Below are positions 2,412 through 30,299 of a stretch of 64,000 nt of DNA, piece after piece. Source of the stretch: Pyrinomonadaceae bacterium. Its GTDB lineage: Bacteria > Acidobacteriota > Blastocatellia > Pyrinomonadales > Pyrinomonadaceae. The position numbers and the translations under genes were made by a program. Below the pieces are notes generated by a model that saw nothing but the letters and a program-made list of their open reading frames with translations, was not told where the DNA came from and made no database searches. The DNA lies in assembly GCA_035761985.1 (NCBI GenBank), contig DASTQB010000206.1, positions 14,343 to 78,342 on the forward strand, written 5' to 3'. The number at the start of each line of letters is the position of its first letter. Position 1 is the stretch's first letter.

Positions 2412-2446
2412 ACCCCAAGCACAGCTAAATTTTGCATGTATTAGGG

Positions 2447-2481: not shown

Positions 2482-2518
2482 AAACAGGGCCCCGGAGTTC
2501 CCTTCAACAGCTGATATT

Positions 2519-3067: not shown

Positions 3068-3093
3068 TTAAACCGCGAGAAAGGAACACTCAT

Positions 3094-12667: not shown

Positions 12668-14662
12668 ATGCCCGGACTGGAACAATACGTCGGCGAGGTT
12701 TTAGACGAGAAATACCGCCTCGAACATCTGCTCGGACAGGGCGGAATGGGCGCCGTGTTCCTTGCCACACACCTCGGCACCGAGCGGTACGTCGCGCTGA
12801 AGCTGATCTCGCCGCAGTTCATGCGCAACAACGAGTTTGTCGAACGCTTCAAGCGTGAAGCACGCGCGGCGGGCCGCCTGCGGCACCCGAATGTTGTTGA
12901 CGTGACTGACTTTGGCTTCGCGACCGTGAAGGCGGGCAAGGTCGCGTACCTCGTCATGGAGTACCTCGACGGCTGCACGCTCGGCGACGTCCTCGCCGAG
13001 GAGAAACGCCTGCCCCTCGAGTGGGTCGCGGACATCCTCGATCAGGTTTGCTCCGCTGTTCACGAAGCGCACCAGCTCGGAATCATCCACCGCGATTTAA
13101 AGCCCGACAACATCTGGCTCGAACCGAATCGCCTCGGCGGTTATCGAGTGAAAGTGCTCGATTTTGGTATCGCTAAACTCGGCGAAGCAACAGCGCCGGC
13201 ACCTGAAGACGATCCGGCCGCAACGATCATCGACGAACCTCCAGCGTCACTTCTCGAAACCGACACGCTGCTGAGACCAGGCGGCGACGAGGCACTTACG
13301 CTCGGCTACAGGGCACGACCTGACACCGAGGGCGTGGGCACCATGTTGCAGAACCCACGCACAGATCCGTTTGTTCAACTTCCGGACGAGGAAGACGGCA
13401 CACTCCTGCTCGAAGGCGGAACGCAAAGCGCCGCACGTCATACCGCTCACGCCGCCACTTCACCACAGGGATCGGCGTTAACGCGCGTCGGCGCGATCAT
13501 GGGAACGCCTCTGTACATGTCGCCGGAGCAATGCGGCGGCGGCCGTGTGACTGCACGCTCCGACATTTACAGCCTGGGCGTTATCGCGTACCAGATGCTT
13601 GCAGGCGAGCCGCCCTTTGAAGGAAATACGTCGACGGTCATACGTGCGCATCGAGAGCAGTCGCCGTTGGATCTCCGCAAACGAAACAAGAAAGTTCCAA
13701 AACGTGTTGCGGCGGTGGTGATGTCGGCACTTTCGAAGAACCCGGAGCACCGTCCGCCGACTGCTTTTGCCTTTGCGAGTGCGTTGCGAGCCCAGAGTGA
13801 AGGTGTCGGTGCTTTGTACAGGCGCGCGTTTTCCCTTTACAGCGAGTATTTTCCTAAATTCGTAAAGCTGAGCTTCTTCGCGCACGTGCCGGCGATTGTC
13901 ACGGGTGGTCTGCTGTTGATTCTGCTGGCGACGGTCCAATTTCCCCCGAGAGGTCCATTGGCGGTGAAGATCGCAGTCGCGTGCGCCGTAGGGATTCTCA
14001 GCCTGGCGCAGATTGTGGCTTCGATGATGGCGGGTGCCGTCATTTCGGGCGTGACGGCAGTGATCATCACGCAACTCACTGCCGCGCCGTTAAAGCCCGT
14101 CCACTTGAGCGAAGCGTTTGGGGTGATGCGACGTCGCTGGCGTCCGTTCCTCAAGACGATGATCATGGTGACCTGGCGCATCTTTCTTGGGTTGGCTCTC
14201 CTGTTCATTCCGGGACTCATCATGATCATCCGTTATTCGCTCTACGCTCCGGTGGTGCTTATCGAAGGTCTGGAGAAGAAAGCGGCGATGAAGCGTTCGC
14301 GCGAACTAGCCGCGCGTTCATGGAGGACCATCATCATCGTCTCGATAATCCAGTTTTTAATCCCGATGATGGTGGGATTTTTTGTCGGGAAGATTCGCGT
14401 TGGTGTGGATCTCGAGGCAGCCACAACATTCAGCCGGATTTCTCAGTTCGTGCTCAGCCAGCTAAACATTCTGGTGATGCCGCTGATCTCGATCGTTCCG
14501 GCGTTGTTGTACCTGAAGATGCGGCAACTCGGCGGCGAACCGCTCGGCGCGGTCCTCACTGAGATTGAAGAAGGCGACAAACAGCGGAGTGCGTGGCAGC
14601 AGCGCATGCGCACGCGCCTCAGTTTGTACACACCCGTCAGTCAGAAGACTCCTACCAGTTAG
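12668..14662 (+). CDS. Ser/Thr protein kinase with polytopic C-terminal membrane domain
   Basis: 664 aa. GQGGMGAVFLA, VALK, HRDLKPDNIWL, DFGIAK, GTPLYMSPE. The C-terminal ~270 aa contains several hydrophobic helices (VPAIVTGGLLLILLATV, AVACAVGILSLAQIVASMMAGAVISGV, FLGLALLFIPGLIMII and others). Confidence 0.88.
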   Translation: MPGLEQYVGEVLDEKYRLEHLLGQGGMGAVFLATHLGTERYVALKLISPQFMRNNEFVERFKREARAAGRLRHPNVVDVTDFGFATVKAGKVAYLVMEYLDGCTLGDVLAEEKRLPLEWVADILDQVCSAVHEAHQLGIIHRDLKPDNIWLEPNRLGGYRVKVLDFGIAKLGEATAPAPEDDPAATIIDEPPASLLETDTLLRPGGDEALTLGYRARPDTEGVGTMLQNPRTDPFVQLPDEEDGTLLLEGGTQSAARHTAHAATSPQGSALTRVGAIMGTPLYMSPEQCGGGRVTARSDIYSLGVIAYQMLAGEPPFEGNTSTVIRAHREQSPLDLRKRNKKVPKRVAAVVMSALSKNPEHRPPTAFAFASALRAQSEGVGALYRRAFSLYSEYFPKFVKLSFFAHVPAIVTGGLLLILLATVQFPPRGPLAVKIAVACAVGILSLAQIVASMMAGAVISGVTAVIITQLTAAPLKPVHLSEAFGVMRRRWRPFLKTMIMVTWRIFLGLALLFIPGLIMIIRYSLYAPVVLIEGLEKKAAMKRSRELAARSWRTIIIVSIIQFLIPMMVGFFVGKIRVGVDLEAATTFSRISQFVLSQLNILVMPLISIVPALLYLKMRQLGGEPLGAVLTEIEEGDKQRSAWQQRMRTRLSLYTPVSQKTPTS

Positions 14663-14726: not shown

Positions 14727-15308
14727 TCATATTTCTGCCGGAACTCGCTTCTCGTATTCCGCTTCCATTTGGTCGACTTTCGCCCAGAATTCTTTTGTTT
14801 GGCGGCCGTTGAGCTGATCGATAAGAACGCCGACGTGCACGTGCCAGCCACTCGCAACACTGACCAATTCCTGACGGTTGCGGAGGTTTCGATGTGTCAG
14901 AACCATCAGCACCTGGTCGCCTTTTGGGGTCAGTTCGAAAATGACTTCCGATTCGTCGCCCTGCTCCTCTCCCCACATAAAACTCAGGACGTGCGGCGGC
15001 TCGCAGCGAACAACGTAGCCCGTACTCACCATGCCTTCACAATCTTTGAAACGCTCCGGTGGCGGTCCACCCTCCGAGGCGAGCTGGGAGTTGTGAAAGT
15101 GGAACTCCAGTTTTCCTCCGGCGCGCAATTCCATCGGTCCGGATGCGAACCACTTTCCGCGCTTCTCTGATTCGGTGAGATAAGCCCACACACGTTCGAT
15201 CGGACCGGGAAGCAGGCGCTCGAGCCGCACGGTGCGAGGTTCTGTAACTACACCGTAATCGTCGTTGCCGGTTTCGGGTTCAACTTGTTTTCTTGATTCT
15301 GCACTCAT
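14727..15308 (-). CDS. SRPBCC/AHSA1 (activator of Hsp90 ATPase homolog 1-like) family protein
   Basis: 193 aa. RLERLLPGPIERVWAYLTESEKRGKWFASGPMELRAGGKLEFHF is typical of this family. Start overlaps the arsR stop by 4 bp, the common ArsR-AHSA1 pairing. Confidence 0.78.
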   Translation of the reverse strand: MSAESRKQVEPETGNDDYGVVTEPRTVRLERLLPGPIERVWAYLTESEKRGKWFASGPMELRAGGKLEFHFHNSQLASEGGPPPERFKDCEGMVSTGYVVRCEPPHVLSFMWGEEQGDESEVIFELTPKGDQVLMVLTHRNLRNRQELVSVASGWHVHVGVLIDQLNGRQTKEFWAKVDQMEAEYEKRVPAEI

Positions 15309-15670
15309 CGAGGTCGTCCTTTCTTGCTCGTTTTACTGGCAGTTTCCTCATCTTCGGCTTTCAATAAAGCCTCCAACGCATCCAGACGCGCGTTCCAGAT
15401 GGCGCGCTGAGTTTCAATCCAATTCGCTACTTCATCCAGTTGTTGTCGATTGAACGACAGAAAGTGGTCCCGCCCGACAGTCCGCCGGCGCACCAGATCG
15501 GCACGCTCGAGGATGCGAATGTGTTTCGAGACCGCGTTGAGCGATATATCGAAAGGCGCTGCCAGTTCCGTAACTCGTGCCTCACCTTGGGAGAGTCGTT
15601 GTAGAATGGCTCTTCGCGTCGGGTCAGCCAGCGCCGTAAAAGTCTGATCGAGATTGCTCTGCCGGATCAT
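15305..15670 (-). CDS. ArsR/SmtB family transcriptional regulator
   Basis: 121 aa from the ATG whose complement is at 15668-15670: MIRQSNLDQTFTALADPTRRAILQRLSQGEARVTELAAPFDISLNAVSKHIRILERADLV. The track ORF extends to 15970, but the extra 100 aa have no family similarity and cover the operator. Confidence 0.85.
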   Translation of the reverse strand: MIRQSNLDQTFTALADPTRRAILQRLSQGEARVTELAAPFDISLNAVSKHIRILERADLVRRRTVGRDHFLSFNRQQLDEVANWIETQRAIWNARLDALEALLKAEDEETASKTSKKGRPR

Positions 15671-15673
15671 TTG

Positions 15674-15697
15674 ATATTCAACCTTATGGTTGAATAT
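15674..15697. promoter_or_regulatory. Perfect 10-4-10 palindrome ATATTCAACC-TTAT-GGTTGAATAT; candidate ArsR operator
   Basis: Begins 4 nt upstream of the arsR start codon. Both arms are perfectly complementary. ArsR/SmtB repressors typically bind 12-2-12-like inverted repeats at their own promoter. Confidence 0.6.
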
Positions 15698-16031
15698 AGT
15701 CCAGGTTTGAAACTGTGTCAACGGTGAATCTTGGATTTCGAAATTGGGATTGCTGAGTCCCGCTTGCGAAACCAATTCTTCGATTTTTCGAAGCGGCGAT
15801 CTGAATTTTAGCCGCGGACAATGCGAGAAATGGCGGATTTGCGCTGGATTTGACGTCGCCGGCTGTTTCGAGCGAGGTTGGCACGGGTATTGAAAAGAGC
15901 CGTCGCGGAGAACTGTATAGTTGCGTGTGAAGTAATCTAGCTCGATTCGATTCATGCTTCGCGCGCGCATCGCCGCTCTCTCAACAAGGCTATTACACGT
16001 TCTCCATTAAATTTTTTTTGAAGTAAGCACC

Positions 16032-17288
16032 ATGGACATAAAGCGACCCCCTAAATCGAAGATCAAGAAGAAGATTCGCAACGCGGTCATGATCGTTGTC
16101 GGGTTAGCCGCGATCGGCGGCATCACCTACGGTCTGACGAAGCTCAAGCCAGCGGCGCCGGCCGTTGACCGCAATACCATCGTGATCGAAACCGTGAAAC
16201 GCGGTGAGATGATCCGCGACGTGCGAGGCAATGGAACTCTCGTTCCCGAGATCACTCGCTGGGTGCCGGCTCCTGCCCAGGGGCGCGTTGAGAAGATTCT
16301 TCTTCAGGCGGGTGTCGAAGTTGATGCATCGACAGTCCTCGTTGAACTTCATAATCCCCAACTGGAACAGCAGGCGACCGACGCCGAGTTTCAGGTAAAA
16401 GCAGCCGAGGCGGACGCAGAGAACCTGAAAGTCCGCCTCGAAAGCGAAACGATGACGCAAAAAGCTGCGATCGCGACCATCAACTCGCAGTACAGCCAGG
16501 CGAAGTTGCAGCTCGACGCCGATGAAGTTCTCGGAAAAGACGGCTACATCGCCCCCCTCCAGTTGAAGATCTCTCGCGTCGCCGTTCAGGACCTTGCCAA
16601 CCGGCTCAAAGTCGAGCAGGAACGATTGGCAGTCAGTGCAAAATCAACCAAGGCACAGCTGAATGCCGCAACGTCGCGTTTGAGCCAGTTGCGCGCACTC
16701 GCGGCTTTGAGACGGCAGGAAGTTGATGCGTTGAAAGTGCGCGCCGGAACGGCGGGTGTGCTGCAACAGGTTTCCGTCCAGGTTGGACAGCAGGTTGATC
16801 CGGGATTCAACATCGCGCGCGTTGCCGATCCGACGTCGCTGAAAGCGGTGCTGAGAGTTGGTGAAACGCAGATTAAAGACGTGCGAATCGGTCAGCCGGT
16901 CGTCGTCGACACTCGCAACGGTCTGATTCAGGGAACAGTTTCCCGCATCGACCCGGCTGCTCGTGAAGGTACTTTCGAAATCGACGCATCGCTCATCGGA
17001 CCGCTCCCGCCAAGCGCGCGCCCCGATTTGAGCGTTGATGGAACGATCGAACTTGAGCGCCTCAAAGACGTTTTGAAAGTCGGACGGCCCGCGTTTGGGC
17101 AGGCATTCCAGACTATCGGCATGTTTGTGCTGACTCCTGACGGAAGCGAGGCTGTGCGTACGACGGTGAAACTCGGACGCAACTCCGTCAGTACTATCGA
17201 GATTCTCGAAGGTCTGAAGGAAGGTGACCAGGTCATCATTTCAGACACGTCGGCACAGGATAGTTATAACCGCATTCTGATTCGTTGA
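16032..17288 (+). CDS. HlyD/MacA-type periplasmic adaptor (membrane fusion protein)
   Basis: 418 aa. Basic N-terminus plus TM helix (AVMIVVGLAAIGGITYGL), barrel-sandwich segment, long Q/A/E-rich coiled-coil hairpin (NPQLEQQATDAEFQVKAAEADAENLKVRLES...SQLRALAALRRQEVDAL), beta-rich C-terminus. Confidence 0.85.
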   Translation: MDIKRPPKSKIKKKIRNAVMIVVGLAAIGGITYGLTKLKPAAPAVDRNTIVIETVKRGEMIRDVRGNGTLVPEITRWVPAPAQGRVEKILLQAGVEVDASTVLVELHNPQLEQQATDAEFQVKAAEADAENLKVRLESETMTQKAAIATINSQYSQAKLQLDADEVLGKDGYIAPLQLKISRVAVQDLANRLKVEQERLAVSAKSTKAQLNAATSRLSQLRALAALRRQEVDALKVRAGTAGVLQQVSVQVGQQVDPGFNIARVADPTSLKAVLRVGETQIKDVRIGQPVVVDTRNGLIQGTVSRIDPAAREGTFEIDASLIGPLPPSARPDLSVDGTIELERLKDVLKVGRPAFGQAFQTIGMFVLTPDGSEAVRTTVKLGRNSVSTIEILEGLKEGDQVIISDTSAQDSYNRILIR

Positions 17289-17376
17289 TCGGGCCGCACG
17301 GAAGGTGCAGTGCCATAGAACCCGGCTTTGCGGTGTTCAATAAAAGGATTCTCTACACAAATTTGCGAAGGAGCCA

Positions 17377-18138
17377 ATGATGAGTTCTTCTGAGCCCCTG
17401 ATTCACCTGTCTGACGTAAAGAAGGTGTTTTACACTGACGAGGTCGAAACACACGCACTTTCCGGTATTCATCTCGATATCAAACAAGGTGAATACGTCT
17501 CGATCGCCGGTCCTTCGGGTTGCGGCAAATCAACTCTACTGTCGATTCTCGGCCTGCTCGACACGCCGACCGACGGCAAGTACGTCCTCAACAACCATCC
17601 GGTTGAAAATCTCTCGCTTTCGGAGCGAGCGAGGATCAGGAACCGCGAAGTCGGGTTCATTTTCCAGAGCTTCAACCTGATCGGCGACCTGACGGTTTAC
17701 GAGAATGTTGAACTGCCGTTGACCTATCGCGGGATGAGTTCCGCCGAGCGTAAGAAGCGCACCACTGATGCGCTCGAACGAGTCGGTATGGCGCATCGTG
17801 CGAAACACCTGCCGAGCCAGTTGTCCGGCGGTCAGCAACAGCGTGTCGCGGTCGCGCGTGCAGTTGCCGGCGAGCCGAGCATCCTGCTCGCGGACGAGCC
17901 AACTGGTAACCTCGACTCGACCAACGGTGAAGCCGTGATGGAGTTGATGCGCGAATTGCACCGCGCCGGCGCAACCATCTGCATGGTGACGCACGATCCC
18001 CGTTACGCGCAGCACGCCGATCGCATCGTTCACTTATTTGACGGCCTTATCGTCGAAGAGGAAGCGGGAGCCGACAGGCGCGAGATTCAGGACGCCAAGC
18101 GCGAGCTGGCAGAGAGCGGTTTCGGAGCAATTTCATGA
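17377..18138 (+). CDS. Stand-alone ABC transporter ATP-binding protein, MacB/LolD-like clade
   Basis: 253 aa. Walker A GPSGCGKSTLL, FIFQSFNLIGDLTVYENV, signature LSGGQQQRVAVARA, Walker [14 protein letters not shown]-loop VTHD. AAGGAG at 17368-17373; the ATG at 17380 is an equally plausible start. Confidence 0.9.
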   Translation: MMSSSEPLIHLSDVKKVFYTDEVETHALSGIHLDIKQGEYVSIAGPSGCGKSTLLSILGLLDTPTDGKYVLNNHPVENLSLSERARIRNREVGFIFQSFNLIGDLTVYENVELPLTYRGMSSAERKKRTTDALERVGMAHRAKHLPSQLSGGQQQRVAVARAVAGEPSILLADEPTGNLDSTNGEAVMELMRELHRAGATICMVTHDPRYAQHADRIVHLFDGLIVEEEAGADRREIQDAKRELAESGFGAIS

Positions 18139-18830
18139 TCACGTTGCGGGGCGTAGAAAAGGCTTTCCCCCACGGGCCAACGAAGACTTACGTGCTCCGG
18201 CGGATCGATCTCGACATCAAGGCTGGTGAGTTTGTGTCGATCATGGGTCCATCGGGCGCGGGCAAGTCGACGCTCTTACACATCCTGGGCATGCACGATC
18301 AGTCGTGGACTGGTGAGTATTACTTTGACGAGGTACCAGTCCACACGCTCGACGCGAAGAAGCGAGCGGCATTGCGCAACCGGAACATCGGATTTGTTTT
18401 TCAGAGCTATCACCTCCTCGACGATCAGACAGTCTTTGAAAATCTCGAGCTGCCGCTTTCGTATCGCGACGTGAGTAAGAAAGATCGTCAATCGATCGTT
18501 TGCGACACGCTCGACCGGTTTCAGATGGTAGGCAAGAAGGATCTGTTCCCGACGCAGCTTTCAGGCGGACAGCAACAACTCGTCGGTATCGCGCGTGCGG
18601 TTGTTGCGAATCCGCGGATCATCCTTGCCGACGAGCCGACTGGAAATCTTCATTCGGCGCAGGGCAAAGAGATCATGGACATGTTTAAGCGTTTGAACGA
18701 CGAAGGTACGACGATTGTGCAGGTGACACACTCGGAGACTAACGCGGCCTACGGCAACCGTATCATTCGTCTCGAAGATGGCTGGATAGTTAATCAGCCG
18801 CAGGAGCAGAAGACAGTCGCCAGTTATTAA
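18135..18830 (+). CDS. Second, non-identical stand-alone ABC transporter ATP-binding protein, MacB/LolD-like clade
   Basis: 231 aa. Walker [30 protein letters not shown], signature [14 protein letters not shown], Walker [14 protein letters not shown]-loop VTHS. ATGA overlap with the first ATPase gene. Confidence 0.9.
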
Positions 18831-18971
18831 CGACTGCCCTCCCAGCTGCTGTTGAGCGAAGCGAAGAACCTGGTTTTCAAATAATCCTGTAGTTGCTCGA
18901 GAGATTGACCACAACGTCGATCGAGTAGTCGATCAACGTTGACGTCACAAGTGTGCCCGGAGCAAGAAGTT

Positions 18972-20123
18972 ATGAATACCGCAGTAGCCCAGATCCCACG
19001 CACTCTCATCGCGGATGATCAGCCCGATGTCCGGGCAGCGTTGCGTTTGCTCCTGAAAGGCGCGGGCTATCAAACGGAAGCGGCGGACTCGCCGGCTGCC
19101 GTGCTCGCTGCCATCGAGCAGCAGCAGTTTGATCTCGTGCTGATGGACCTGAACTACGCGCGCGATACGACGTCGGGAAAAGAAGGTCTCGATCTCATCT
19201 CGCGAATTCAGGACCTCGACGATGATTTACCGATCGTGGTGATGACAGCGTGGGCCACAGTCGACCTTGCAGTGGAAACGATGCGGTTGGGCGTGAGGGA
19301 CTTTGTTCAAAAGCCCTGGGAAAACTCTCGCCTGCTACGAAAGTTGCGAACTCAGATCGAGCAGGGACGTGAACGACGACGCGAGCAGACACGTGATCTG
19401 CAACTCCGTCTCGAACTCGCCGAAGCACGAGAGATACAGCGCGGATTGATGCCCCGGCGAATGCCGGAGCTTCCGGGCTTCAGTGTCGCGAACGCATGGC
19501 AGCCTGCGCATGACGTGAGTGGCGATTACCTTGCGGCGATCAAGCTTGATGAGTCGCGTGCTGCGTTGTGCATGGCTGACGTTGCGGGGAAGGGGTTTCC
19601 GGCAGCACTGCTCATGTCGAACATGCAGGCGGCTTTGAAGTCTCTCGTTTCAGAAAACATTCCTCCGGGTGAGCTTTGCGCGAGGCTCAATCGAATCATG
19701 TGTGGCAACACGCCGTTGCGGAAGTTTATTAGTTGCTTCTACGGCGAGCTTGATCTTCCGAAGCGGACGCTGACGTTTACGAATGCCGGTCACAATGCGC
19801 CGATGCTCGTGCGTCGCAACGGCGAGTGCATTCGACTCGATGATGGTGGTTGTGTGATCGGTGCATTCGCAGGTTCCAACTACACGCAACGAGAAATCAG
19901 GCTTAATGAAGGCGACAAGCTGCTGCTGTTCACGGACGGCGTAACCGAAGCACGCAACCCTTCCGGGGAAGAATTCGGCGAAGAGCGGTTGGAGCAGTGC
20001 CTCCGCGCCTATCGCGGCCGCAACGCCGCCGAGCTGCGAACACTGGTTCTGGACGAGGTTACAGAGTTTTGCAGCGACAAGTTCGAAGACGACGCCACGC
20101 TGATGGTCGTGATCGCTGATTAG
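18972..20123 (+). CDS. Response-regulator receiver fused to a PP2C/SpoIIE-type Ser/Thr phosphatase (RsbU-like)
   Basis: REC: TLIADDQPDV...FDLVLMDLNY...PIVVMTAWA...DFVQKPW. PP2C: VSGDYLAAIKL...CMADVAGKGFPAALLMS...FTNAGHNAPML...LLLFTDGVTEA...DDATLMVV. ATG 18972 is preferred (GGAG 9 nt upstream); the track start TTG 18939 is possible. Confidence 0.88.
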   Translation: MNTAVAQIPRTLIADDQPDVRAALRLLLKGAGYQTEAADSPAAVLAAIEQQQFDLVLMDLNYARDTTSGKEGLDLISRIQDLDDDLPIVVMTAWATVDLAVETMRLGVRDFVQKPWENSRLLRKLRTQIEQGRERRREQTRDLQLRLELAEAREIQRGLMPRRMPELPGFSVANAWQPAHDVSGDYLAAIKLDESRAALCMADVAGKGFPAALLMSNMQAALKSLVSENIPPGELCARLNRIMCGNTPLRKFISCFYGELDLPKRTLTFTNAGHNAPMLVRRNGECIRLDDGGCVIGAFAGSNYTQREIRLNEGDKLLLFTDGVTEARNPSGEEFGEERLEQCLRAYRGRNAAELRTLVLDEVTEFCSDKFEDDATLMVVIAD

Positions 20124-20320
20124 CCTGCGAAGCAGGCGTAAGCGTAAAGCCTGGGGCGTGAGCCCCAGGATCGAGAATAAAAATTTGACGTGTCAGCCCA
20201 TGAAATGGGCGGCAGCTTTTACAGCGCACTGTCGCCCGCATACGCGGGCTTGAGAATTGTGATGCTCTTGAACCTGGGGCTCACGCCCCAGGCTTTACGC
20301 TTACGCCTGCTTCGCAGGCT
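20122..20320. mobile_element. MITE-like non-autonomous element: perfect 48-bp terminal inverted repeats flanking a 103-bp core
   Basis: Left arm 20122-20169 agcctgcgaagcaggcgtaagcgtaaagcctggggcgtgagccccagg. Right arm 20273-20320 is its exact reverse complement. Each arm and the core contain nested hairpins (cctggggc/gccccagg, gcccat-gaa-atgggc, gcccgc-atac-gcgggc). No transposase ORF. Confidence 0.7.
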
Positions 20321-20336
20321 AGACAAGGGAGTCAAT

Positions 20337-22757
20337 ATGGATAGTCTTAGAAGCGACGTCCAGTACGCACTCAGGAGCCTCACGAAGCGTCCCGGTTTCA
20401 CTCTCATCGCCGTCATCACTCTCGCTCTCGGCATCGGCGCCAACACCGCGATCTTCAGCGTCATCCATGCACTCCTACTGAAACCACTGCATTTCCCTGA
20501 ACTCGATCGCGTCGTTGCGATCTGGGATGAAATGCCCACCCGCGACATCAAGCACAATGAAGTGACCGTCGCAAACTATCTCGACTGGCAGTCGCAGAGC
20601 CAGTCGTACGAACACCTCGCGCTCCGTCGCTGGTGGAGTGCAAATCTCACCGGCAACGATTCGCCCGAACGCATCCAGGGATTTCTCGTCACTGCAAACT
20701 TCTTCGACGCCGTCGGCATCAAGCCGGTCATGGGCCGCAACTTCACTGCGGAAGAAAACCAACCCGGCAAAGACGCAGTCGCGATCCTCACTCACACTCT
20801 CTGGCAAAGACGTTTCGGCGGCGATCCAAACATCATCGGCAAAACGATCACCGTAAACAGCATCGCGCGCACAGTGATCGGCGTGATGCCCGAGCGTTTC
20901 AACTATCCGAATGGCTCGGAACTCTATGCGCCACTCCCGATGACGCCCGAGTTGATGCGAAGCCGCGGCAATCATAGTTACTACGTCATCGGCCGCATGA
21001 AGCCCGGCGTTTCGGTCGAGAGTGCGCAGGCGGAAATCGACAGCATTACCGCACGACTTCAGCAGCAGTATCCGGAAACCAACGCGGGCTGGGGCGCGCG
21101 AGTTTATCCAATCGTCGCAGACACCATTCAAAACTATGACACGGCCTTGTGGGTGATTATGGCCGCAGTCGGGTTCGTGCTTTTGATCGCGTGTGCAAAC
21201 GTGGCGAACCTGATGCTTGCGCGAGCGAGTGGACGGCAGAAAGAGATCGCTTTGCGAGCTGCGCTCGGTGCGAGTCGTTGGCGGATCGTGCGGCAGTTGC
21301 TGACCGAAAGCGTGATCGTCGGTTTGGCCGGCGGAGTGATCGGAATTCTTATCGGCTTCTGGGGCGTCGACGCGTTGCGCGCAACAAATCCGGGTGAGGC
21401 GGCGAAGTTTGTCGAGGGCTGGAATCAACTCGGAATCAACGTGCCTGTGCTCGCCTTCACGTTTGCGCTCTCGATCTTCAGTGGCATCGTGTTTGGACTG
21501 TTGCCCGCGCTGCAAGTCTCGAGACCGAATCTCAACGACTCTTTAAAAGAAGGATCGCGCCAGACCGCAGGCAGTTCGCACCGGATGCGCAGTTCGCTCG
21601 TAGTTTTCGAAGTAGCGGTGTCGCTCGTGCTTCTTGTAGGCGCGGGATTGCTGGCTCGCAGTTTCCTCTCATTGTTGAGAACGGATCCGGGTTTTGATCC
21701 CGAGAACGTGCTCACGATGAACCTCGTTTTGCCGGGAGCGAAGTACAGGGACGAACCAGCGCGCGCCGCGTTCTACCAGGACCTGGTCCAACGCGTGAAG
21801 ACAACGCCGGGCGTGCAGTCAGCGGGGTTCGTCAACTACATCCCGCTCAGCGGCAGCAACTCTTCCAACTCGTATCTGGTTGAAGGTGAGCCCGAGCCGG
21901 CACCGGGCAACGAGTACGACGGGCGTTATCGCGTCAGCACTCCCGACTATTTCCAGACGATGGGCATTTCGATCCTGCGTGGTCGAGGTTTCACTGAGCA
22001 GGACAAAGCAGGTGCGCCGCGCGTCGTCATCGTAAACGAAACACTCGCGCGCAAGCACTGGCCGGGCCAGGAGGCGATCGGGAAACGCATTCGCTTCGAT
22101 GGACCACTCGATCAGAACCCGTGGATGGAGATCGTCGGTGTAGTGAACGACGTGAAGCACGAACTCGATCTCGCAGTCACACCCGAATACTACCTGCCGC
22201 ATGCACAGGATCCATGGAGCGCGATGGTGCTGGTGGCAAGGACGACAGTCGATCCGGCTTCGCTTGCGGGTTCGCTCCGGCAGCACGTGTGGGCCATTGA
22301 CAAGGACCAGCCAGTATACGACGTGAAGACGATGCACGAAGTGCGATCGATTTCGGTAGTGCTGTATTCGTTCTCATCGGTGATGCTTGGAATCTTCGCG
22401 AGCATCGCCCTCTTGCTGGCGTCGATTGGAATTTACGGCGTGATGGCGTTTGCCGTGACGCAGCGTACGCAGGAGATCGGGATACGCATGGCGCTTGGTG
22501 CGCGGGCGCTCGACGTTTTGAAGCTGGTGGTCACGCACGGGATGAAGCTTGCGCTGATCGGGATCGCGATCGGGTTGGCGGGTTCGTGGGCGTTGACTCG
22601 TTTTATCAAAGGACTGCTGGTGGGCGTGGAGGCGACTGACGCGTTGACCTTCAGCGTGGTGTCGCTGTGTTTGCTGGTGGCTGCGTTTATCGCGTGCTAT
22701 CTGCCGGCGCGACGGGCGACGAAAGTCGATCCGCTCGTGGCATTGAGATACGAATAG
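20337..22757 (+). CDS. ADOP-type duplicated MacB/FtsX-like ABC permease, paralog 1
   Basis: 806 aa from ATG 20337 (AAGGGA upstream). N-term [41 protein letters not shown]. FtsX block 1 [44 protein letters not shown]. Block 2 [26 protein letters not shown]-term [16 protein letters not shown]. The track start 20190 reads through the MITE and is rejected. Confidence 0.9.
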
Positions 22758-22800: not shown

Positions 22801-25215
22801 ATGGATTCGCTGATCAAAGACATCCGTTATGGCGCTCGCATGCTGATCAAGAAGCCCGGCTTCGCGATCATTGCTGTGCTGACGCTTGCTCTCGGGATCG
22901 CTGCAACCACGGCCACGTTCACCGTCGTCGACGCCGTGTTGTTGCGGAAGCTGCCGGTCGCCGATCCCGATCGCGTGGTCGTCATTCACAATCAGCTTCC
23001 GAAGCTCAATCTTCCACGCAGTCCAGTTTCCGGTCCGCATTACCTCGATTACAGCCGCCAGACCGACGCGTTCCAGTCAACCGCCGCTTTTGCAACTCGC
23101 AACTTCAATCTTACCGGCGTCACTTCGCCTGAGCGTTTGCAGGCGGGCCGCGTGACGGCGAGCTTCTTCCCGATGCTCGGCATTGGTCCAACTGCCGGCC
23201 GCTTCTTCACTCCCGAAGAAGATCAATTCGGGAACGAACGTGTCGCGGTGCTGAGTACGCGCTTGTGGAAACGGCTCTACAGTTCCGACACGTCCGCCTT
23301 CAACAAGACGCTCCAGCTCAACGGCGATCATTATCAAATCGTAGGCGTCGCGCCTGAGTCGATCGAAGAGATCTATCCGAACGTTGAACTGTGGATTCCG
23401 ATGGCTTTCTCGCCGCGCGAGCTTTCGCCGGAACGCCGCAACAGCCTCGCCTACATTATGATCGCGCGTCTGCAGAATGGCACGACCATTGAGCGTGCGC
23501 AGGCGATCATGAGCGGCGTCGCGAAGAACAGTTCCGGCTCGGATCCCGACATCTTCAACATCGAAGTCCGTTCGCTTGCAGATTCGTACGTGAGCGAAGT
23601 GCGGCAGCCGCTGTTCGTACTGCTGTGCGCCGTCATTGCCGTCCTGTTGATCTCGTGCGCGAACGTAGCAAACCTCCTGCTCGCGCGTGCGACTGTGCGC
23701 GGTCACGAGATCGCCGTTCGTTCAGCTCTGGGCGCCGGCCGGAGCCGTATCGTTCGTCAACTTCTGACTGAAAGTCTTCTGATCGCACTGCTCGGCGGCG
23801 CGATTGGAATGCTGCTCGCCGTGTGGGGCACAAAGGCTCTGCTTGCGCTTGCGCCCAGCACCCTCCCGCGTCTCAGCGCGGTTCAAGTCGATCTCAGAAT
23901 TCTTTTACTGAGCTTTGGTGCGTCATTGGTTTGCGGCGTGATCTTCGGCTTGGTCCCCGCGTTAACTGCTTCAAAGACCAATCTCGTCAGTTCGCTCAAA
24001 GAATCCGAACGAACCGATTCAGGTGGTGGCACGCGCCACTGGCTGCGGAGAACATTCGTCGTTGCGGAAGTCGCGATCGCACTCGTGCTCCTGTTTTCAG
24101 CGGGCCTGCTCGTCAGGAGTTTCGGAAAGCTGCTCGACGTGAAGCCCGGGTTTGATCCGACAAACGTGCTCACGGTGCGGCTGTCTCTGCCCGGGGCTCA
24201 GTACGACAAAGCTACCAAAGTCGCTACGTTCTACGACGACGTGCTGGCGCGCGTCTCTGCTTTGCCCGGCGTGGTCCATGCAGGCGCGGCGTTTCAAACT
24301 CCGTTTACGCCCGGCGCCGACAATTCGACGTTTTCAATTCGTGGACGGCAGGCGAACGCAGGCGATCCGCCGCCACATGCAGACTACGCGTTTGTATCTG
24401 CAAATTACTTCAAGACGATCGGGCTGCCGATTCTCAAGGGCCGCGACTTCGAACCCTCCGACATGCGCGCGGGCAATTTCTTCGCGCCCAACTCGGTCGC
24501 CATTGTCGACGAGGAACTCGCAAACCGGTACTGGCCAAACGGCGATGCAATCGGCGGCGGGATAAGCTGGAGCAGTGAAGGCCCATGGGCCACGATCGTC
24601 GGCATCAGCAAGACGGCACAGTTCAAAGACCTCACCGAGCAATCGAAGGGCACGTTCTATCTTCCTGCGTACATCTCGAGTTCGACACTGGTAGTCCGCA
24701 CTTCCGGAGATCCGCGACAGCTCGCGGGTGCGATACGCGAGCAGGTGCTCGCAGTCGATCCGAACCAACCTGTTTACGACGTCAAGACAATCGAAGAGCG
24801 AATCGCAGTAACGCTCGAGACGCGGCGGTTTGCAGTCGTGCTGCTGGGAATATTCGGAACGCTTGGTTTGGTGCTCGCGGCGATCGGTTTGTACGGCGTT
24901 CTTGCGTTCGCGGTGTCGCAACGCACACGTGAGATTGGCATTCACATGGCCCTCGGAGCGCGGGCACGCGACGTGTTGTTCATGGTGATCAAGCAGGGAA
25001 TGTCGCTGGTGCTTGTTGGCGTGGCGATCGGCGTCGCGGGCGCGTACGCGGTTACGCGCGCGATTCGGAGTTTGTTGTTTGAAGTTGGCGCGACGGATCC
25101 GCTGACGTTTGTGGCGGTGTTGCTGCTGCTTTTGTTTGTTGGGTTTGTGGCTTGTTACGTGCCCGCGAGGCGGGCGACGAAAGTCGATCCGCTCGAGGCA
25201 TTGAGATACGAATAG
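22801..25215 (+). CDS. ADOP-type duplicated permease, paralog 2
   Basis: 804 aa. [41 protein letters not shown]; [44 protein letters not shown]; [25 protein letters not shown]; C-term [16 protein letters not shown]. Confidence 0.9.
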
Positions 25216-25275: not shown

Positions 25276-27792
25276 ATGGATACGCTGTTCAAAGATCTAC
25301 GCTACGGTTTACGCGGTCTGTGGAAACGCAAGGGGTTTGCCGCGATCGCGGTGCTTACGCTCGCGCTCGGCATTGGCGCCAACACCGCCATTTTCACGCT
25401 TGTCAACGCAGTGATGCTGAAGACGCTGCCGGTCGAGAAGCCGGAAGAGCTCGTGCTCTTCAGCGACACGACGAGTGAAGGAACGTCTCTTCTCGATGGT
25501 CCAAGATCAGGCCAGTGGGTGCGTTTCTCCTACGCCTCTTACGAATACTTCCGGAATCACAATCAGTCGTTTCAGGACATCGCCGCGACTCGCAGCGGCA
25601 CCGCTCGTCTCAGCGTGCGACGAACTGATGCCGAGGCGAAGGCCGCCGCGCGTGCAACGGGACATCTCGTTACCGGAAATTATTTCTCAGTGATGGGAGT
25701 GCGTGCGCAGCGCGGTCGCGTGCTCACGCCCGAAGACGATCGCGAAAACGCTCAGCCCGCGGCTGTGATCAGTCATCGCTACTGGGCCAACGAACTCAAC
25801 AGCGATCCAACAGCAATCGGCAAGACGTTCATCATCAACGGCACAAACTTCACTGTCGTCGGCATCACGCCGCCCGAGTTCTTCGGCGAGCGCGTTCGTC
25901 GCCCGCCCGATTTCTGGATGCCGCTCTCGTTCCAGCCGCAGATCGAGTTGCGCGAGTCGTTTCTCAAAGAGCAACACGCGTACTGGCTCATGCTCATGGG
26001 CCGGCTCAAACCCGGCGTGACCCTGGACCAGGCACAGGCCAGCACAAACCTCGCCCTGCGGCAGTTCCTGACCGAACAGGCAGGCAGCCAGCTCACCGAA
26101 GAACGCCAGAGAGGTATTCAAAACAGTTACGCGACGCTTGTCGAAGGCAAAGGCGGTATCTCCGGACTTCGCACTTTCTACTCGAAACCACTGCACATGC
26201 TGATGGCCATCGTCGGCATGGTGTTGTTGATTGCTTGCGCAAACGTCGGAAGCCTGTTGCTTTCGCGGGCCGCTGCGCGCAAGGCTGAAATCTCTTTGCG
26301 CATGGCGCTCGGCGCGACACGCTGGCGGATCGTTCGCCAACTCCTGACCGAGAGCATGTTGCTCGCAGTGATCGGCGGCGCGCTCGGCGTGTTGTTGGCC
26401 CAGTGGGGAGTGTACGTGCTCGTCGGTCTGGTCGCACAAGGCTCTCCGCTCGATACGCGACCGGACATTGGCGTGCTGGCGTTCACCGCAGGCGTATCGA
26501 TCCTTGCCGGCCTGTTGTTTGGTCTCATTCCCGCCCTGCAAGCGAGCCGCGCGAATCTTTCGTCCACGATGAAAGAGAAGAGCCGGACGGGAAGCCGCTT
26601 CCTGCGGCTGAGCCCCTCGTCGATGATGGTCGTATTGCAGGTCGGACTCTCGATGGTCCTGCTCACAGGCGCCGGTCTCTTCGGCCGCAGTCTCATGAAC
26701 CTGCAGAACGAAGATCTCGGTTTCGATCGAAACAACATGCTGCTGGTCGGTATCGATCCGCGTCTCGCCGGATACAAGCCCACTGACCTTTCGGCTCTCT
26801 ATCAACAGGTGATCGAACGTCTGTCAACGGTCCCGCACGTCAAAAACGTGTCGATGGCAACGTACGCGCCGATGAGCGGCACGCGACGAAGCAGCAGTAT
26901 TCAGATCCCGGGTTTCACTCCCGAGCCTGGCCAGGAGCTTGCAGTCGAAGACATCTTAACTGGACCAAAATACGCTGAGACGCTCGGCATGCCCGTGTTG
27001 CGCGGTCGCGAGATCGACATGCGCGACACCGTTTCGGCACCGCGCGTTGCAGTGGTCAACGCGACTTTCGCCGAGCGCTACTTCAAGGACCAGAATCCGA
27101 TCGGGCGCACGTTTACGTTCGACGACGAGACTGACGATGGTGCTCCACTCGAGATCGTCGGCGTTGTCGCCGACATCAAGTCGGACGATGCGCGTGGAAA
27201 ACCGGAGGCGGTGGTCTATCGCCCGATACTTCAAATTCAGGACCAGGCGGCGTACTCAGTAACTCTTCACCTGCGCACGCTCAGCGATCCTACGTCGCTC
27301 GGTTCCCAGGTGCGGCAGATGCTCAACCAGATCGACGACAAGATGCCGGTGTACGGCGTCACGTCGATGGACGAACAACTGCGCCAGAACCTGAACGAGG
27401 AGCGGTTGGTCGCGCAACTCGTCAGTTTCTTCGGCGCGCTCGCGTTGATACTCGCGTGCATCGGTTTGTACGGCGTGATGGCCCATGGCGTTGCACGTCG
27501 CACGAATGAGATTGGCATACGCATGGCGCTCGGCGCGCGTGGTGGAAACATCGCGTGGATGATTTTGCGGGAGACGTTGTTGCTCGTGCTTGCGGGTTTG
27601 GTGATTGGAGTGCCGGCGGCGCTTCTCGGAGCGCGACTGGTGTCGACACAGCTTTTTGGAATGAGTCCGACGGATCCGTTGACGTTGATTGGCGCGGCAG
27701 TGGTTTTGGCTGTGGTTGCGTTGCTGGCGGGCTACGTGCCCGCGCGCCGCGCGACGAAGATCAATCCGCTCGTCGCGCTCAGGTATGAATAG
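25276..27792 (+). CDS. ADOP-type duplicated permease, paralog 3 (long first periplasmic domain subtype)
   Basis: 838 aa. [41 protein letters not shown]; [44 protein letters not shown]; [25 protein letters not shown]; C-term [16 protein letters not shown]. Confidence 0.9.
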
Positions 27793-27893: not shown

Positions 27894-30299
27894 ATGATCA
27901 TGGACGCCTTAATTAAAGACATCCGCTATGGCGTGCGCAGCTTGTTGAAGCGGTCGGGGTTTACGGCAGTCGCCCTGGTCGCGCTCGCGCTCGGAATCGG
28001 AGCGAACACCGCGATCTTCAGCCTCGTCAATGCCGTCGTTCTCCAGCCTCTGCCTTACCAGGATCCCGATCGACTCGTCTGGGCTTGGGGAAGCCTTCGT
28101 AACATCGGCAACCGTGCGAGTGTCTCGCCGGTCGACTACCTCGACTACCGCAACCAGAACAAAACATTCGAAGTCTTCGCCGCCTCAGGCACGATGTCGG
28201 GATTCGTCAACATGTCGGGCACTGGTGAGCCTGAACGTCTCAGCGTCTCAGCGGTAACCGGAAATTACTTCGATGTCTTTGGTGTGCGTCCCGCCCTCGG
28301 TCGTGGCTTTTCACTCGAGAATGAGAAAACCGCTCAGAATCAAGTTGCTGTCATCAGCGACGAACTGTGGCAAAGACGCTTTGCGCGTGATCCGGGAATC
28401 ATCAACAAGACGATCATTCTCGACGGCAAGCCGTATCAAGTGATCGGTGTCATGGCGGCCGGCGTGAAGCTGCCGCAAGAGGCTGAGTTGTGGGTGCCGA
28501 TGGACTTCGACGGTAACCCGGAACTGAAGATGCGCCAGCTCGCCTTTCTCCGGCCCATCGGAAAATTAAAACCCGGAGTTAGCGTGGCCCAGGCGCAAGC
28601 TGATACCGATGTAATCGCAGCTCAACTCGAACAACAGTATCCGGATACGAACACCGGCCGCAGTCTTCGTCTCGTTTCGTTGCGTGAACAACTCGTCGGC
28701 GGCAGCAGCACGATGGTTTTTATTCTCTTCGGAGCCGTCGGGCTTGTGCTGCTCATTGCGTGCGCGAATGTGGCCAACCTGTTACTCGTGCGCGCCGCTG
28801 CGAGGCAGAAAGAGATCGCGTTACGCACTGCGCTCGGCGCGAGTCGATCGCGAATCTTTCGCCAGATGATCACCGAGAGTTTGTTGCTGGCCATCGCCGG
28901 CGGTGCGCTTGGCGCACTGCTGGCGGTGTGGGGAGTTGAACTGCTGGTAGCGTTGAGCGCTGACAGTTTGCCTTCCACGGTGACGATAAAGATCGATACT
29001 ACGGTGCTCGCGTTTACGTTCCTTGTTTCAATCGTAACCGGAGTGTTGTTCGGCCTGGCGCCCGCCTTCCGCACGTCGAAAGTCAATCTCACCGATTCGT
29101 TGAAAGACGGAATGCGTGGTTCAGAAGGCACGCTGCGAAATCGAACGCGCAGTTTGCTCGTCGTGTTCGAAAGCGCCGTCGCCGTGATGTTGCTGATTGG
29201 CGCGGGCCTGCTGGTGCGAAGTTTGATTGCACTGCAAAACGTAGATCCGGGGTTTGACGCAAACAACGTGTTGACATCGCGACTTAGCCTGCCGCCGGAC
29301 AAGTATGGACCGGAAAAGGGCGCGAATTTTCTCCAGCAGCTCGAGGGCCGTGTTGCGGCATTACCCGGCGTTGAAACAGTAGGTCTGATTACCGAACTGC
29401 CACTCAGTGGCCAGCTCCAGGACTTTACTTTCACGGTCGAAGGACGCCCGCCGGTAAACCCCGATCAGGCTTTCGCCACTGACTTTCGTAGTGTTAACAC
29501 AAACTACTTCAATGCGCTCCGCATTCCACTGCTGCGCGGGCGAAACTTCACCGAACAGGAAGTCAGGCAAGGCACGAACGTGATCGTCGTCAGTCAATCC
29601 CTCGTCGACATGGCGTTCCCGAATGAAGATCCCCTCGGCAAACGGATCATCACGATGTTTGGTTACCCGCAACAGATCGTTGGTGTCGTCGGCGATATTC
29701 GTCATGCGTCGCTGCAGAGCCCACCGTTTCCCACGATGTACTTCCCCGGTTTGAATCCGCGCGGGATGAATCTGGTTATTCGCACGAAGGGAGATCCGTT
29801 AAGCCTGGTCGGTGCGGTGCGCAAAGAAGTGCAGACGCTGGATCCTGACCTGCCACTCGCAGGTGTGAAGAAGATGAGTGATTGGGTCGACTCGTCAGTG
29901 GCCGCGCCGCGTTATCGCACGACGTTGCTTACGTTGTTTGCGGCGCTCGCGATGATCCTCGCCGCGACTGGAATCTACGGTGTGATGTCGTACTCAGTTG
30001 CGCAGCGAACACACGAGATTGGAGTGCGAATGGCGCTGGGTGCGCGACGATTCGACGTGTTGAAGATGGTGGTCAGGCAGGGAATGGTTTTGACGTTTGT
30101 TGGCGTGGTGCTGGGGTTGGCGGGCGCGTTTGCGTTGACGCGAGTGATTTCGTCGTTGCTGTTTGGAGTGACGGCGAAGGATCCGGTTACGTTTGGTGTG
30201 GTGGCGGCGTTGTTGATGGCGGTGGCTTTTGTGGCGTGCTTTATTCCGGCGCGCCGCGCGACGAAGGTCGATCCGCTCGTGGCGCTGCGGTACGAATAG
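27894..30299 (+). CDS. ADOP-type duplicated permease, paralog 4
   Basis: 801 aa (799 aa from ATG 27900; AAGGAG at 27887-27892). M(IM)[40 protein letters not shown]; [44 protein letters not shown]; GIYGVMSYSVAQRTHEIGVRMALGA; C-term [16 protein letters not shown]. Confidence 0.9.
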   Translation: MIMDALIKDIRYGVRSLLKRSGFTAVALVALALGIGANTAIFSLVNAVVLQPLPYQDPDRLVWAWGSLRNIGNRASVSPVDYLDYRNQNKTFEVFAASGTMSGFVNMSGTGEPERLSVSAVTGNYFDVFGVRPALGRGFSLENEKTAQNQVAVISDELWQRRFARDPGIINKTIILDGKPYQVIGVMAAGVKLPQEAELWVPMDFDGNPELKMRQLAFLRPIGKLKPGVSVAQAQADTDVIAAQLEQQYPDTNTGRSLRLVSLREQLVGGSSTMVFILFGAVGLVLLIACANVANLLLVRAAARQKEIALRTALGASRSRIFRQMITESLLLAIAGGALGALLAVWGVELLVALSADSLPSTVTIKIDTTVLAFTFLVSIVTGVLFGLAPAFRTSKVNLTDSLKDGMRGSEGTLRNRTRSLLVVFESAVAVMLLIGAGLLVRSLIALQNVDPGFDANNVLTSRLSLPPDKYGPEKGANFLQQLEGRVAALPGVETVGLITELPLSGQLQDFTFTVEGRPPVNPDQAFATDFRSVNTNYFNALRIPLLRGRNFTEQEVRQGTNVIVVSQSLVDMAFPNEDPLGKRIITMFGYPQQIVGVVGDIRHASLQSPPFPTMYFPGLNPRGMNLVIRTKGDPLSLVGAVRKEVQTLDPDLPLAGVKKMSDWVDSSVAAPRYRTTLLTLFAALAMILAATGIYGVMSYSVAQRTHEIGVRMALGARRFDVLKMVVRQGMVLTFVGVVLGLAGAFALTRVISSLLFGVTAKDPVTFGVVAALLMAVAFVACFIPARRATKVDPLVALRYE

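Follow-up and report, generated by a model that had tools for sequence, protein, structure and literature searches.

An adaptor and two unlike ABC ATPases as the probable common engine of an array of ADOP permeases in a Pyrinomonadaceae bacterium

A stretch of 64,000 nucleotides from a Pyrinomonadaceae bacterium (contig DASTQB010000206.1, positions 14,343 to 78,342 of the forward strand; hereafter the window) carries an array of 17 genes for permeases of the TIGR03434 family, the 'acidobacterial duplicated orphan permeases' or ADOPs (PMC3914696). The array lies approximately 1.5 kb downstream of genes for two stand-alone ATP-binding cassette (ABC) ATPases, termed here ATP1 and ATP2, which are preceded by an adaptor gene, and this arrangement raises the question of what powers the permeases. 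ADOPs rank among the largest paralogous membrane-protein families of soil Acidobacteriota, and for over 15 years their annotation has been that of permeases with neither a motor nor a known function. To our knowledge the TIGR03434 description states that ADOPs are essentially never adjacent to ATPase genes; the window does not fit it. No functional study of ADOP or TIGR03434 was found in the searchable literature. The analysis described below suggests that the adaptor, ATP1 and ATP2 probably constitute the common engine of a MacB-like (type VII) ABC machine that takes any ADOP as its membrane subunit. The genes of this module and of the array are:

16032-17288, plus strand, MacA-like periplasmic adaptor (418 aa; Pfam HlyD_3/HlyD_D23)
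17377-18138, plus strand, ATP1, stand-alone MacB/LolD-type ABC ATPase (253 aa; PF00005; D-loop GNLD)
18135-18830, plus strand, ATP2, second stand-alone MacB-type ABC ATPase (231 aa; PF00005; D-loop GNLH, VTHS)
20337-22757, plus strand, ADOP1, permease with eight transmembrane (TM) helices and duplicated MacB_PCD-FtsX (TIGR03434, 1052 bits)
22801-25215, plus strand, ADOP2 (TIGR03434, 951 bits)
25276-27792, plus strand, ADOP3 (935 bits)
27894-30299, plus strand, ADOP4 (998 bits)
30401-32833, plus strand, ADOP5 (1006 bits)
32887-35298, plus strand, ADOP6 (934 bits; start moved from the listed 32770 to the consensus N-terminus)
35331-37757, plus strand, ADOP7 (994 bits; start moved from the listed 35295)
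37871-40288, plus strand, ADOP8 (1029 bits)
40318-42753, plus strand, ADOP9 (939 bits)
42788-45388, plus strand, ADOP10 (944 bits; start moved from the listed 42626)
45418-47904, plus strand, ADOP11 (928 bits)
48061-50502, plus strand, ADOP12 (1035 bits)
50578-53010, plus strand, ADOP13 (977 bits)
54175-56637, plus strand, ADOP14 (939 bits)
56716-59217, plus strand, ADOP15 (973 bits)
59308-61758, plus strand, ADOP16 (956 bits)
61777-64000, plus strand, ADOP17, partial at the window end (901 bits, profile positions 1-740 of 803)

The families that an earlier note had read from the letters of the window were borne out by hidden Markov model searches, which assign the adaptor to the HlyD type, both ATPases to PF00005 and the permeases to TIGR03434. 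Pfam, NCBIfam and the list of open reading frames (ORFs) agree on the adaptor gene as delimited in that note. Its product scores 100 bits against RND_mfp (NCBIfam), above the cut-off, and its AlphaFold2 (AF2) model (predicted local distance difference test score, pLDDT, of 93.9) comprises an N-terminal TM helix, lipoyl, β-barrel and membrane-proximal domains and a long α-hairpin extending over residues 109-169 and 175-232, with approximately 60 residues per arm. The closest folds in the PDB are the MacA chains of MacAB-TolC (9qgy_G, 5nik_D); the adaptor combines this MacA fold with a TM anchor and the long α-hairpin. The family to which it belongs has 1020 representatives at E ≤ 1e-30 (50% clustering), nearly all of approximately 417 aa. 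ATP1 and ATP2, whose genes overlap by ATGA, are non-identical, as had been stated (48% identity, ungapped), and in both of them the Walker A (GPSGCGKST and GPSGAGKST in the two ATPases), Q-loop, LSGGQ, Walker B glutamate and H-loop motifs are intact. They are nucleotide-binding domains (NBDs) of the MacB/LolD/FtsE clade, with DarD, the MacB NBD and LolD as top NCBIfam matches, every score lying under the equivalog cut-off. No permease is fused to either ATPase or encoded between them. The layout of module and array was also correctly described, except that a response-regulator/PP2C gene (18939-20123), which had gone unmentioned, separates ATP2 from the array, and that a 354-aa ORF which is not an ADOP (53061-54125) breaks the run of permease genes. 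As a candidate for a hidden, cognate MacB-type permease the gene at 18939-20123 was ruled out by its Pfam domains, which are those of a response regulator and a PP2C phosphatase.

All 17 permeases downstream on the same strand exceed the curated TIGR03434 cut-off of 622.3 bits, with scores of 901-1052 bits; 16 are complete and one, starting at 61777, is cut by the window end. They are 33-48% identical to one another. The start of ADOP1 is the ATG at 20337, correcting a GTG at 20190 that falls inside an inverted-repeat element described below. Internal duplication is evident in Pfam, where two stretches each of MacB_PCD and FtsX are matched, and the AF2 model of ADOP1 (pLDDT 84) displays eight TM helices and two periplasmic α/β domains. 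Each half presents four TM helices, of which TM1 and TM2 flank a large periplasmic domain while a coupling helix follows TM2 and precedes TM3, with the short helices 301-309 and 711-719 located at the positions of the MacB coupling helix. The idea that one ADOP chain is a covalent pseudo-dimer, put forward in the earlier note, is thus upheld by both the model and the domain duplication. The top full-length fold match of ADOP1 is E. coli YbbP (9ge6_A, E 2.5e-20), followed by MacB, Spr0695, LolC/E and BceB. In YbbAP, two copies of one ATPase bind a single permease that is internally duplicated, at its two coupling helices, giving a 2:1 ratio of NBD to permease (PMC12646458), and because YbbAP seats two ATPases on one duplicated permease, the pseudo-dimer has a solved precedent.

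A separate feature of the array is that all 17 ADOPs open with a conserved cytoplasmic amphipathic helix, MxxLIKDxRYGxRxLLKxPGF, before TM1 (for example at 20337-20400), and that the region before TM5 has no equally conserved counterpart. This asymmetry of the two halves might be relevant to NBD docking.

Conservation of the partnership was surveyed in an adaptor-centred sample, in which one genome per species was scanned with a 12-sequence adaptor alignment and the six-frame ORFs of the resulting 80 loci (cited here by L number, with flanks of up to 10 kb) were compared with the window proteins. The loci derive from Pyrinomonadaceae, other Blastocatellia, Vicinamibacteria, Terriglobia, Bryobacteraceae/Solibacteraceae and Acidoferrales; approximately 13 of the 80 are from Verrucomicrobiota (Chthoniobacterales, Udaeobacter), the others mainly from several classes of Acidobacteriota. 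An ATP1 ortholog (at least 60% identity) adjoins the adaptor in 70 of the 71 loci with enough sequence, at 67-96% identity, and an ADOP is present in 57 of the 63 loci that extend at least 3.5 kb downstream, and in 40 of the 43 whose 10-kb flanks are complete. The typical order is adaptor-ATP1-[ADOP]n-ATP2-regulator. Other orders observed are ATP2-adaptor-ATP1-ADOPn, adaptor-ATP1-ADOP-ATP2-ADOP(-ADOP) and adaptor-ADOP-ATP1-ADOP-ATP2-ADOP-regulator, while the window order, adaptor-ATP1-ATP2-regulator-ADOPn, is the same in two large Pyrinomonadaceae contigs. That linkage is kept in two phyla despite the reshuffled order is strong evidence for functional coupling.

An independent second scan, of metagenomes and centred on an ATP2 alignment, also yielded 80 loci. 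Its patterns are those of generic ABC proteins; approximately 22 of the 80 loci hold ATP2 orthologs (at least 57% identity) and the remainder were used as a control. Wherever the contig is long enough, these orthologs lie in ADOP or ADOP-like clusters, typically at the end of the array just before the regulator (L085, L090, L093, L112, L134), and the ATP1 orthologs are again accompanied by the adaptor and ADOPs. The control set of generic MacB-type ATPases (39-52% identical) is associated with a single FtsX permease of approximately 300-450 aa, or with none detectable, and never with an ADOP. Taking the genome and metagenome samples together, orthologs of ATP1 and ATP2 occur within ADOP clusters at over 100 loci. 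Co-occurrence of the paired-ATPase/adaptor module with ADOPs, for which the earlier note had proposed a survey, therefore recurs well beyond this genome, and comparative genomics gives strong support to a partnership of the ATPases with ADOPs, which we regard as very likely. Same-engine ADOP clusters in approximately 13 metagenome-assembled Verrucomicrobiota loci also show that the family extends beyond Acidobacteria. For these clusters both 'orphan' and 'acidobacterial' fail, and the family description needs revision.

Loci that carry the engine genes and lack an ADOP are few. Among those with full flanks they are L062, L076 and L030 (the last frameshifted), and L104 likewise has engine genes without an ADOP. 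No other permease was found beside the ATPases in L062, L076, L030 or L104, and in the loci examined no cognate non-ADOP permease lies beside any ATP1 or ATP2 ortholog. In L062 a β-lactamase-family gene follows ATP1; two ORFs of approximately 390 aa at this position were considered as unfused permease halves and rejected, one being the β-lactamase-family protein and the other having no Pfam match. The order in L076 is OEP-transposase-adaptor-ATP1-ATP2-regulator-kinase.

A distant clade displays the same architecture (L092, 7932-20573; L096; L108), with some members from human gut metagenome. Its adaptor is 25% identical to that of the window and is accompanied by an ATP1-like protein, an ATP2-like protein with His or Asn in the D-loop and several duplicated permeases, which score no higher than 159-334 bits against the ADOP model and match DarB as well. 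In L092 the ATP1-like and ATP2-like genes are adjacent, and the ATP2-like protein carries the His D-loop. Paired ATPases next to permeases that fall below the cut-off indicate that the ATPase pair predates ADOP proper.

The regions of the ADOPs were compared, as mean identity to the column consensus, in an alignment of 144 sequences that combines the 17 of the window with 127 from the loci. The values are 0.71 for coupling-helix loop 1, 0.72 for coupling-helix loop 2 and 0.76 for the C-terminal tail, whereas the periplasmic domains reach 0.44-0.45; an alignment restricted to the window paralogs agrees with this. The first coupling helix (CH1) has the consensus ARa..R..E.AiR.AlGAsR.R..RQlLtES, and the second (CH2) has a consensus that is unlike it, starting V.qRT and ending dvl; both are fixed across the family. 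ADOPs located directly after ATP1 and directly after ATP2 have an identical CH1 and CH2 consensus and so provide no evidence for two classes of client. One or two ATPase genes accompany from one to at least 17 ADOPs, which, with the uniformity of the coupling parts, fits a shared engine with diversified periplasmic heads. A single engine common to many ADOP paralogs is accordingly plausible, and we favour it with some confidence. From the proposal of the earlier note, that of one adaptor/ATPase engine with many permease cartridges, the part that stands is the one backed by the conserved linkage and the uniform NBD-facing regions; ATP1 and ATP2 may or may not match the two unlike halves of the permease.

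A mechanism can be proposed in which a pair of NBDs would bind one ADOP at its two coupling helices, in the way that two YbbA bind YbbP, and ATP binding and hydrolysis would move the periplasmic domains by mechanotransmission. Through the adaptor, this motion would be coupled to an outer-membrane duct whose gene lies elsewhere. On one engine the 17 paralogs would be alternative, substrate-specific cartridges, each extruding other compounds of the periplasm or outer leaflet, for instance antimicrobial peptides, xenobiotics or lipophilic molecules. ADOPs are thus probably exchangeable membrane components of a single envelope machine driven by ATP.

This machine resembles several known systems without belonging to any of them. 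Canonical MacB is an NBD-permease fusion, with the NBD at the N-terminal side, that acts as a homodimer, with four TM helices and one periplasmic domain per protomer, together with MacA and TolC. The window system shares with MacAB-TolC the MacA-fold adaptor, the MacB/LolD-type NBDs and the build of each ADOP half, consisting of TM1, a periplasmic core domain and TM2-4 with a coupling helix. It differs in that the NBDs are separate and of two kinds while the permease halves are fused, in its 17 alternative permease genes and in the absence of a TolC gene at the locus; the ATPases stand alone and score 134-230 bits against MacB proper (NF007826), the cut-off being 966 bits. With YbbAP(-TesA) it has in common a single duplicated FtsX-type permease served by stand-alone NBDs, YbbP being the top fold match. 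In contrast, YbbP has 10 TM helices, including a linking TM5-6 pair, where eight are predicted for ADOP, and YbbAP has one ATPase gene where two are found here, one permease gene, no adaptor and the hydrolase TesA as partner.

The darobactin exporter DarBCD likewise comprises an adaptor, an ATPase and a duplicated permease (PMC8442675). DarD is the top NCBIfam match of both ATP1 (255 bits) and ATP2 (248 bits), a match along the whole adaptor links it with DarC (83 bits), and ADOPs weakly match DarB, a duplicated permease of approximately 777 aa. These scores remain far below the equivalog cut-offs of NF038007/8/10, which are 375 bits for the ATPases, 450 for the adaptor and 700 for the permease (ADOP1 33.5, ADOP2 27.7), and DarBCD differs in having one ATPase and one permease and in residing in a biosynthetic cluster for a ribosomally made peptide that is modified after translation (RiPP). 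BceAB-BceRS also has a single-chain FtsX-family permease, two NBDs and a linked two-component system (fold matches 8g3a, 7tcg), but BceB has 10 TM helices and one extracellular domain, its NBDs are identical, there is no adaptor and the regulator is of the OmpR type rather than the sigma-54 type. A 42-kb cluster of ADOP paralogs with ATP-binding transporter genes, encoding abundant proteins, has been reported in a genomic island of Psychroflexus torquis (PMC3914696); that genome belongs to Bacteroidota, and the cluster was mentioned in passing, with neither the partnership nor the ATPase pair, nor how far these are conserved, being analysed. In sum, the window system would function in the manner of a MacAB-type tripartite pump whose permease is fused as in YbbP, yet it is a member of neither family nor of DarBCD.

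Sharing of ATPases is better documented among importers. In group II energy-coupling factor (ECF) transporters (EcfA/EcfA'/EcfT), two unlike ATPases serve many separately encoded membrane components. We know of no example of ATPase sharing in type VII or MacB-like machines. MsmX is a multitask ATPase shared among importers (PMC7658222). Both ECF group II and MsmX resemble the window system in that one ATPase module serves many membrane partners, and differ from it in being importers with unrelated folds. Tentatively, and with some reservation, ADOP systems could be regarded as an exporter-side counterpart of group II ECF, in which an adaptor and an asymmetric ATP1/ATP2 heterodimer (canonical and His D-loop) would be shared in trans by up to 17 or more interchangeable single-chain permeases, each with a periplasmic head of its own, including the many 'orphan' ADOPs scattered through the rest of the genome.

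The pairing of the ATPases is a question of its own, and the prospects of an ATP1/ATP2 heterodimer appear nearly, if not quite, even. Across 73 ATP1 and 37 ATP2 sequences, 21 differences are fixed by lineage while all catalytic motifs are kept. They include the D-loop (GNLD in ATP1 versus GNLH in ATP2), the LSGGQQQR segment, VTHS in ATP2 and residues located just after the Q-loop. The D-loop lies at the NBD dimer interface, and the Q-loop region at the interface with the membrane domain, in contact with the coupling helix. The change from Asp to His in the D-loop of ATP2 is fixed over the 37 orthologs. In the metagenome sample, ATP2 orthologs all have Leu after LSGGQQQ, and His in the D-loop wherever the contig covers the site, with Asn in three distant-clade loci. 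Judged by their sequences, ATP1 and ATP2 are two ancient and separate orthologous lineages. Their genes are adjacent in the distant lineages L025, L056, L061, L071, L072, L076, L077, L092 and L104, and in L067, a bounded cluster with a single ADOP, both are present. The automated classing of bounded clusters is crude, as a 700-nt gap rule splits some of them, and only individually inspected cases are used here.

Several observations weigh against the shared engine or against parts of it. The evidence for the reading is comparative or predicted throughout. Gene counts are per locus, which bears on the idea of a single engine per genome. Coupling helices are the best-conserved part of FtsX-family permeases generally, so that their uniformity among ADOPs is to some degree expected. 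In the window a hairpin (20121-20321) parts the engine genes from the ADOP array and makes co-transcription uncertain. Concerning the heterodimer, an ATP2 ortholog (64-96% identity in this sample, 59-96% over all orthologs) occurs in only 22 of the 43 fully flanked loci, although ATP2 tails large arrays and is often missed by adaptor-centred 10-kb flanks. At least three compact clusters, L058, L080 and L122, read adaptor-ATP1-ADOP-regulator with no ATP2 within reach, so that a heterodimer is not obligatory everywhere. The usual hallmark of obligate ABC heterodimers is one degenerate catalytic site, and this hallmark is absent, both catalytic sites being fully consensus. Concerning the outer membrane, a gene for an outer-membrane factor is found neither in the window nor in 77 of the 80 loci.

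This last point also bears on the formation of a tripartite pump with an outer-membrane factor, for and against which the case seems to us evenly balanced. The statement of the earlier note that the window holds no TolC-like gene proved correct: its large ORFs are otherwise assigned, and tblastn with an acidobacterial OEP gave no match. In three of the 80 loci an OEP/TolC-like gene is located upstream of the adaptor (L061, 117-2471; L076, 5999-7801; L062, 2421-4193); in L061 it directly abuts the adaptor and in L076 a DDE transposase lies between the two. TolC genes are often unlinked from pump genes, and their absence from a locus therefore decides nothing.

The alternative that survives best accepts the same partnership and differs in the engine. 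ATP1 would act as a homodimer and general ADOP motor, similar to YbbA2-YbbP or BceA2-BceB, with ATP2 as a second, separate motor or a modulatory paralog. The compact one-ADOP clusters without ATP2 favour this arrangement, as do the catalytic residues kept in both ATPases and the identical NBDs of every solved type VII system among the fold and literature matches, and the layout ATP1-ADOP-ATP2-ADOP resembles a tandem duplication of an ATPase-permease unit. Against it, CH1 and CH2 of the ADOPs after ATP1 and after ATP2 are indistinguishable, so that two classes of client are not seen. Furthermore, the one-ADOP cluster of L067 still has both ATPases, the two genes are translationally coupled in the window through ATGA and adjacent in several distant lineages, the His D-loop of ATP2 is fixed over its orthologs, and the ATPase pair is older than ADOP proper. 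Homodimeric engines are on this evidence unlikely, if by no means far-fetched.

A second alternative concerns function. FtsEX activates periplasmic enzymes and BceAB signals substrate flux to a histidine kinase; by analogy, ADOPs might be mechanotransducers or sensors rather than mainly efflux cartridges, the engine powering many paralogous periplasmic 'heads' through which partner proteins, or else the two-component system next to them, would be controlled. The conserved neighbourhood does include a histidine kinase and a sigma-54 response regulator, and nearly all loci lack a gene for an outer-membrane factor. YbbAP, to which ADOP1 comes closest in full-length fold, has a periplasmic hydrolase as its partner and does not act as a TolC pump (PMC12646458). 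A predicted secreted repeat protein lies within the window array, and DUF4097 proteins recur in verrucomicrobial arrays. Against this, the most constant partner of the ADOPs is a MacA-fold adaptor with a long TolC-type hairpin, which FtsEX, BceAB and YbbAP all lack; OEP genes abut the adaptor (L061) or lie near it (L076, L062); and 17 paralogs with divergent periplasmic domains are more simply explained by differing substrate specificity. A mainly sensory role consequently appears improbable.

Finally, coincidental adjacency, in which the adaptor and ATPases would serve a conventional permease elsewhere and ADOPs would truly lack ATPases, is already strongly disfavoured and to us barely credible: the family description does call ADOPs orphans, most ADOPs of a genome are presumably away from ATPases, and L062, L076 and L104 carry the engine without an ADOP within 10 kb, but shuffled gene order leaves the association intact across two phyla and in both of the independent samples (the 80 genome loci, of Acidobacteriota and Verrucomicrobiota, exclude a chance confined to this genome, which the earlier note had named as a refuting outcome), an alternative permease is never adjacent to the engine genes, and the control ATPases of the same scan have their own single FtsX permeases or none detectable.

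With the shared engine as the preferred reading, the conserved three-gene module of adaptor, ATP1 and ATP2 offers a testable entry to ADOP function. If true, it would add three features new to type VII ABC systems: two kinds of NBD encoded apart from the permease, permease halves joined into a pseudo-dimer, and a one-engine-many-permease logic known so far only from importers. It may also account for the ability of abundant soil oligotrophs to withstand chemically varied antimicrobials or to export varied products.

The regulatory and remaining elements around the cluster are:

12668-14662, plus strand, Ser/Thr protein kinase (Pfam Pkinase)
15879-15894, plus strand, sigma-54-type -24/-12 promoter element TGGCACGGGTATTGAA, 137 nt before the adaptor ATG
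15895-16031, plus strand, conserved 5' leader of the adaptor operon, near-invariant in five loci with adaptors 83-90% identical
18939-20123, plus strand, response regulator with PP2C (SpoIIE) phosphatase output (394 aa; Pfam domains)
20121-20321, no strand assigned, inverted-repeat element of 201 nt between the stop of the response regulator and the start of ADOP1
53061-54125, plus strand, predicted secreted repeat protein of 354 aa, not an ADOP, interrupting the array

The predicted promoter is spelled TGGCACGG-N3-TTGAA and is followed by a leader of approximately 135 nt. Conservation among the window, L001, L002, L007 and L005 begins exactly at 15879-15894, and the sequence further 5' is unconserved. 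The pattern TGGCA[CT]N5T[TC]G occurs upstream of the adaptor in 26/78 loci versus 16/3842 control windows; as a bare pattern across the window the motif is at chance level, and its weight derives from position and comparative conservation only. A consensus scan of the window for promoters and terminators returned nothing above chance, and the leader has no Rfam match.

An NtrC-type sigma-54 response regulator and a histidine kinase are located within the cluster in approximately 30 loci, and in most lineages the sigma-54 promoter would be controlled by this cluster-encoded pair. The receiver of the window regulator is 44-64% identical to receivers of NtrC-type sigma-54 regulators (L041, L046, L047, L058, L067, L075 and others). 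Matches in distant loci that had been taken for orthologs of the whole PP2C regulator are in fact NtrC-type sigma-54 regulators that have only the receiver domain in common with it. Apparently, the output domain was swapped from AAA+/helix-turn-helix (HTH) to PP2C phosphatase within one orthologous regulator in the window lineage (L001, L002, L007, L008, L012), where the phosphatase would replace the regulator's output domain. No sigma-54 activator is encoded in the window. The Ser/Thr kinase occupies the same position in L001, L002 and L007, and a homolog with 46% identity lies upstream of ATP2-adaptor-ATP1 in L024 and L051. It is a possible regulatory partner of the module; its conservation 5' of the engine in Pyrinomonadaceae-type loci that lack the histidine kinase/sigma-54 pair suggests that control of the cluster was rewired.

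The arms of the inverted repeat are 56 nt long, 96% complementary and 89 nt apart. The element has one copy in the window and is absent from all fetched loci; L001 has a different hairpin at the equivalent place. A terminator, an insulator and a miniature inverted-repeat transposable element are possible identities of the window element. The product of 53061-54125 has a signal-peptide-like N-terminus and approximately eight repeats with SSDYE(K/R); Pfam gives no match for it, and a homolog did not turn up among the other fetched loci. In Verrucomicrobiota, a protein of approximately 340 aa with a weak match to DUF4097 ('toastrack') is encoded inside or just after the ADOP clusters (L041, 18041-19075; L046; L060; L068; L072, 12911-13978).

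The 5' end of the window (positions 25-4800) is unremarkable: 25-2318 encodes a fragment of a histidine kinase together with a hybrid kinase/receiver, 2519-3067 an Rrf2 regulator and 3094-4800 an RpoD-type sigma-70 factor, with no link to the ADOP cluster seen. Relative to L001 and L002, the interval from the Ser/Thr kinase to the leader of the adaptor contains inserted genes for an ArsR-family regulator and an AHSA1/SRPBCC protein (14727-15970, minus strand). The ArsR ORF (15305-15970) is probably over-extended, as its HTH begins at residue 114; a start at Met101 would place its beginning at approximately 15670.

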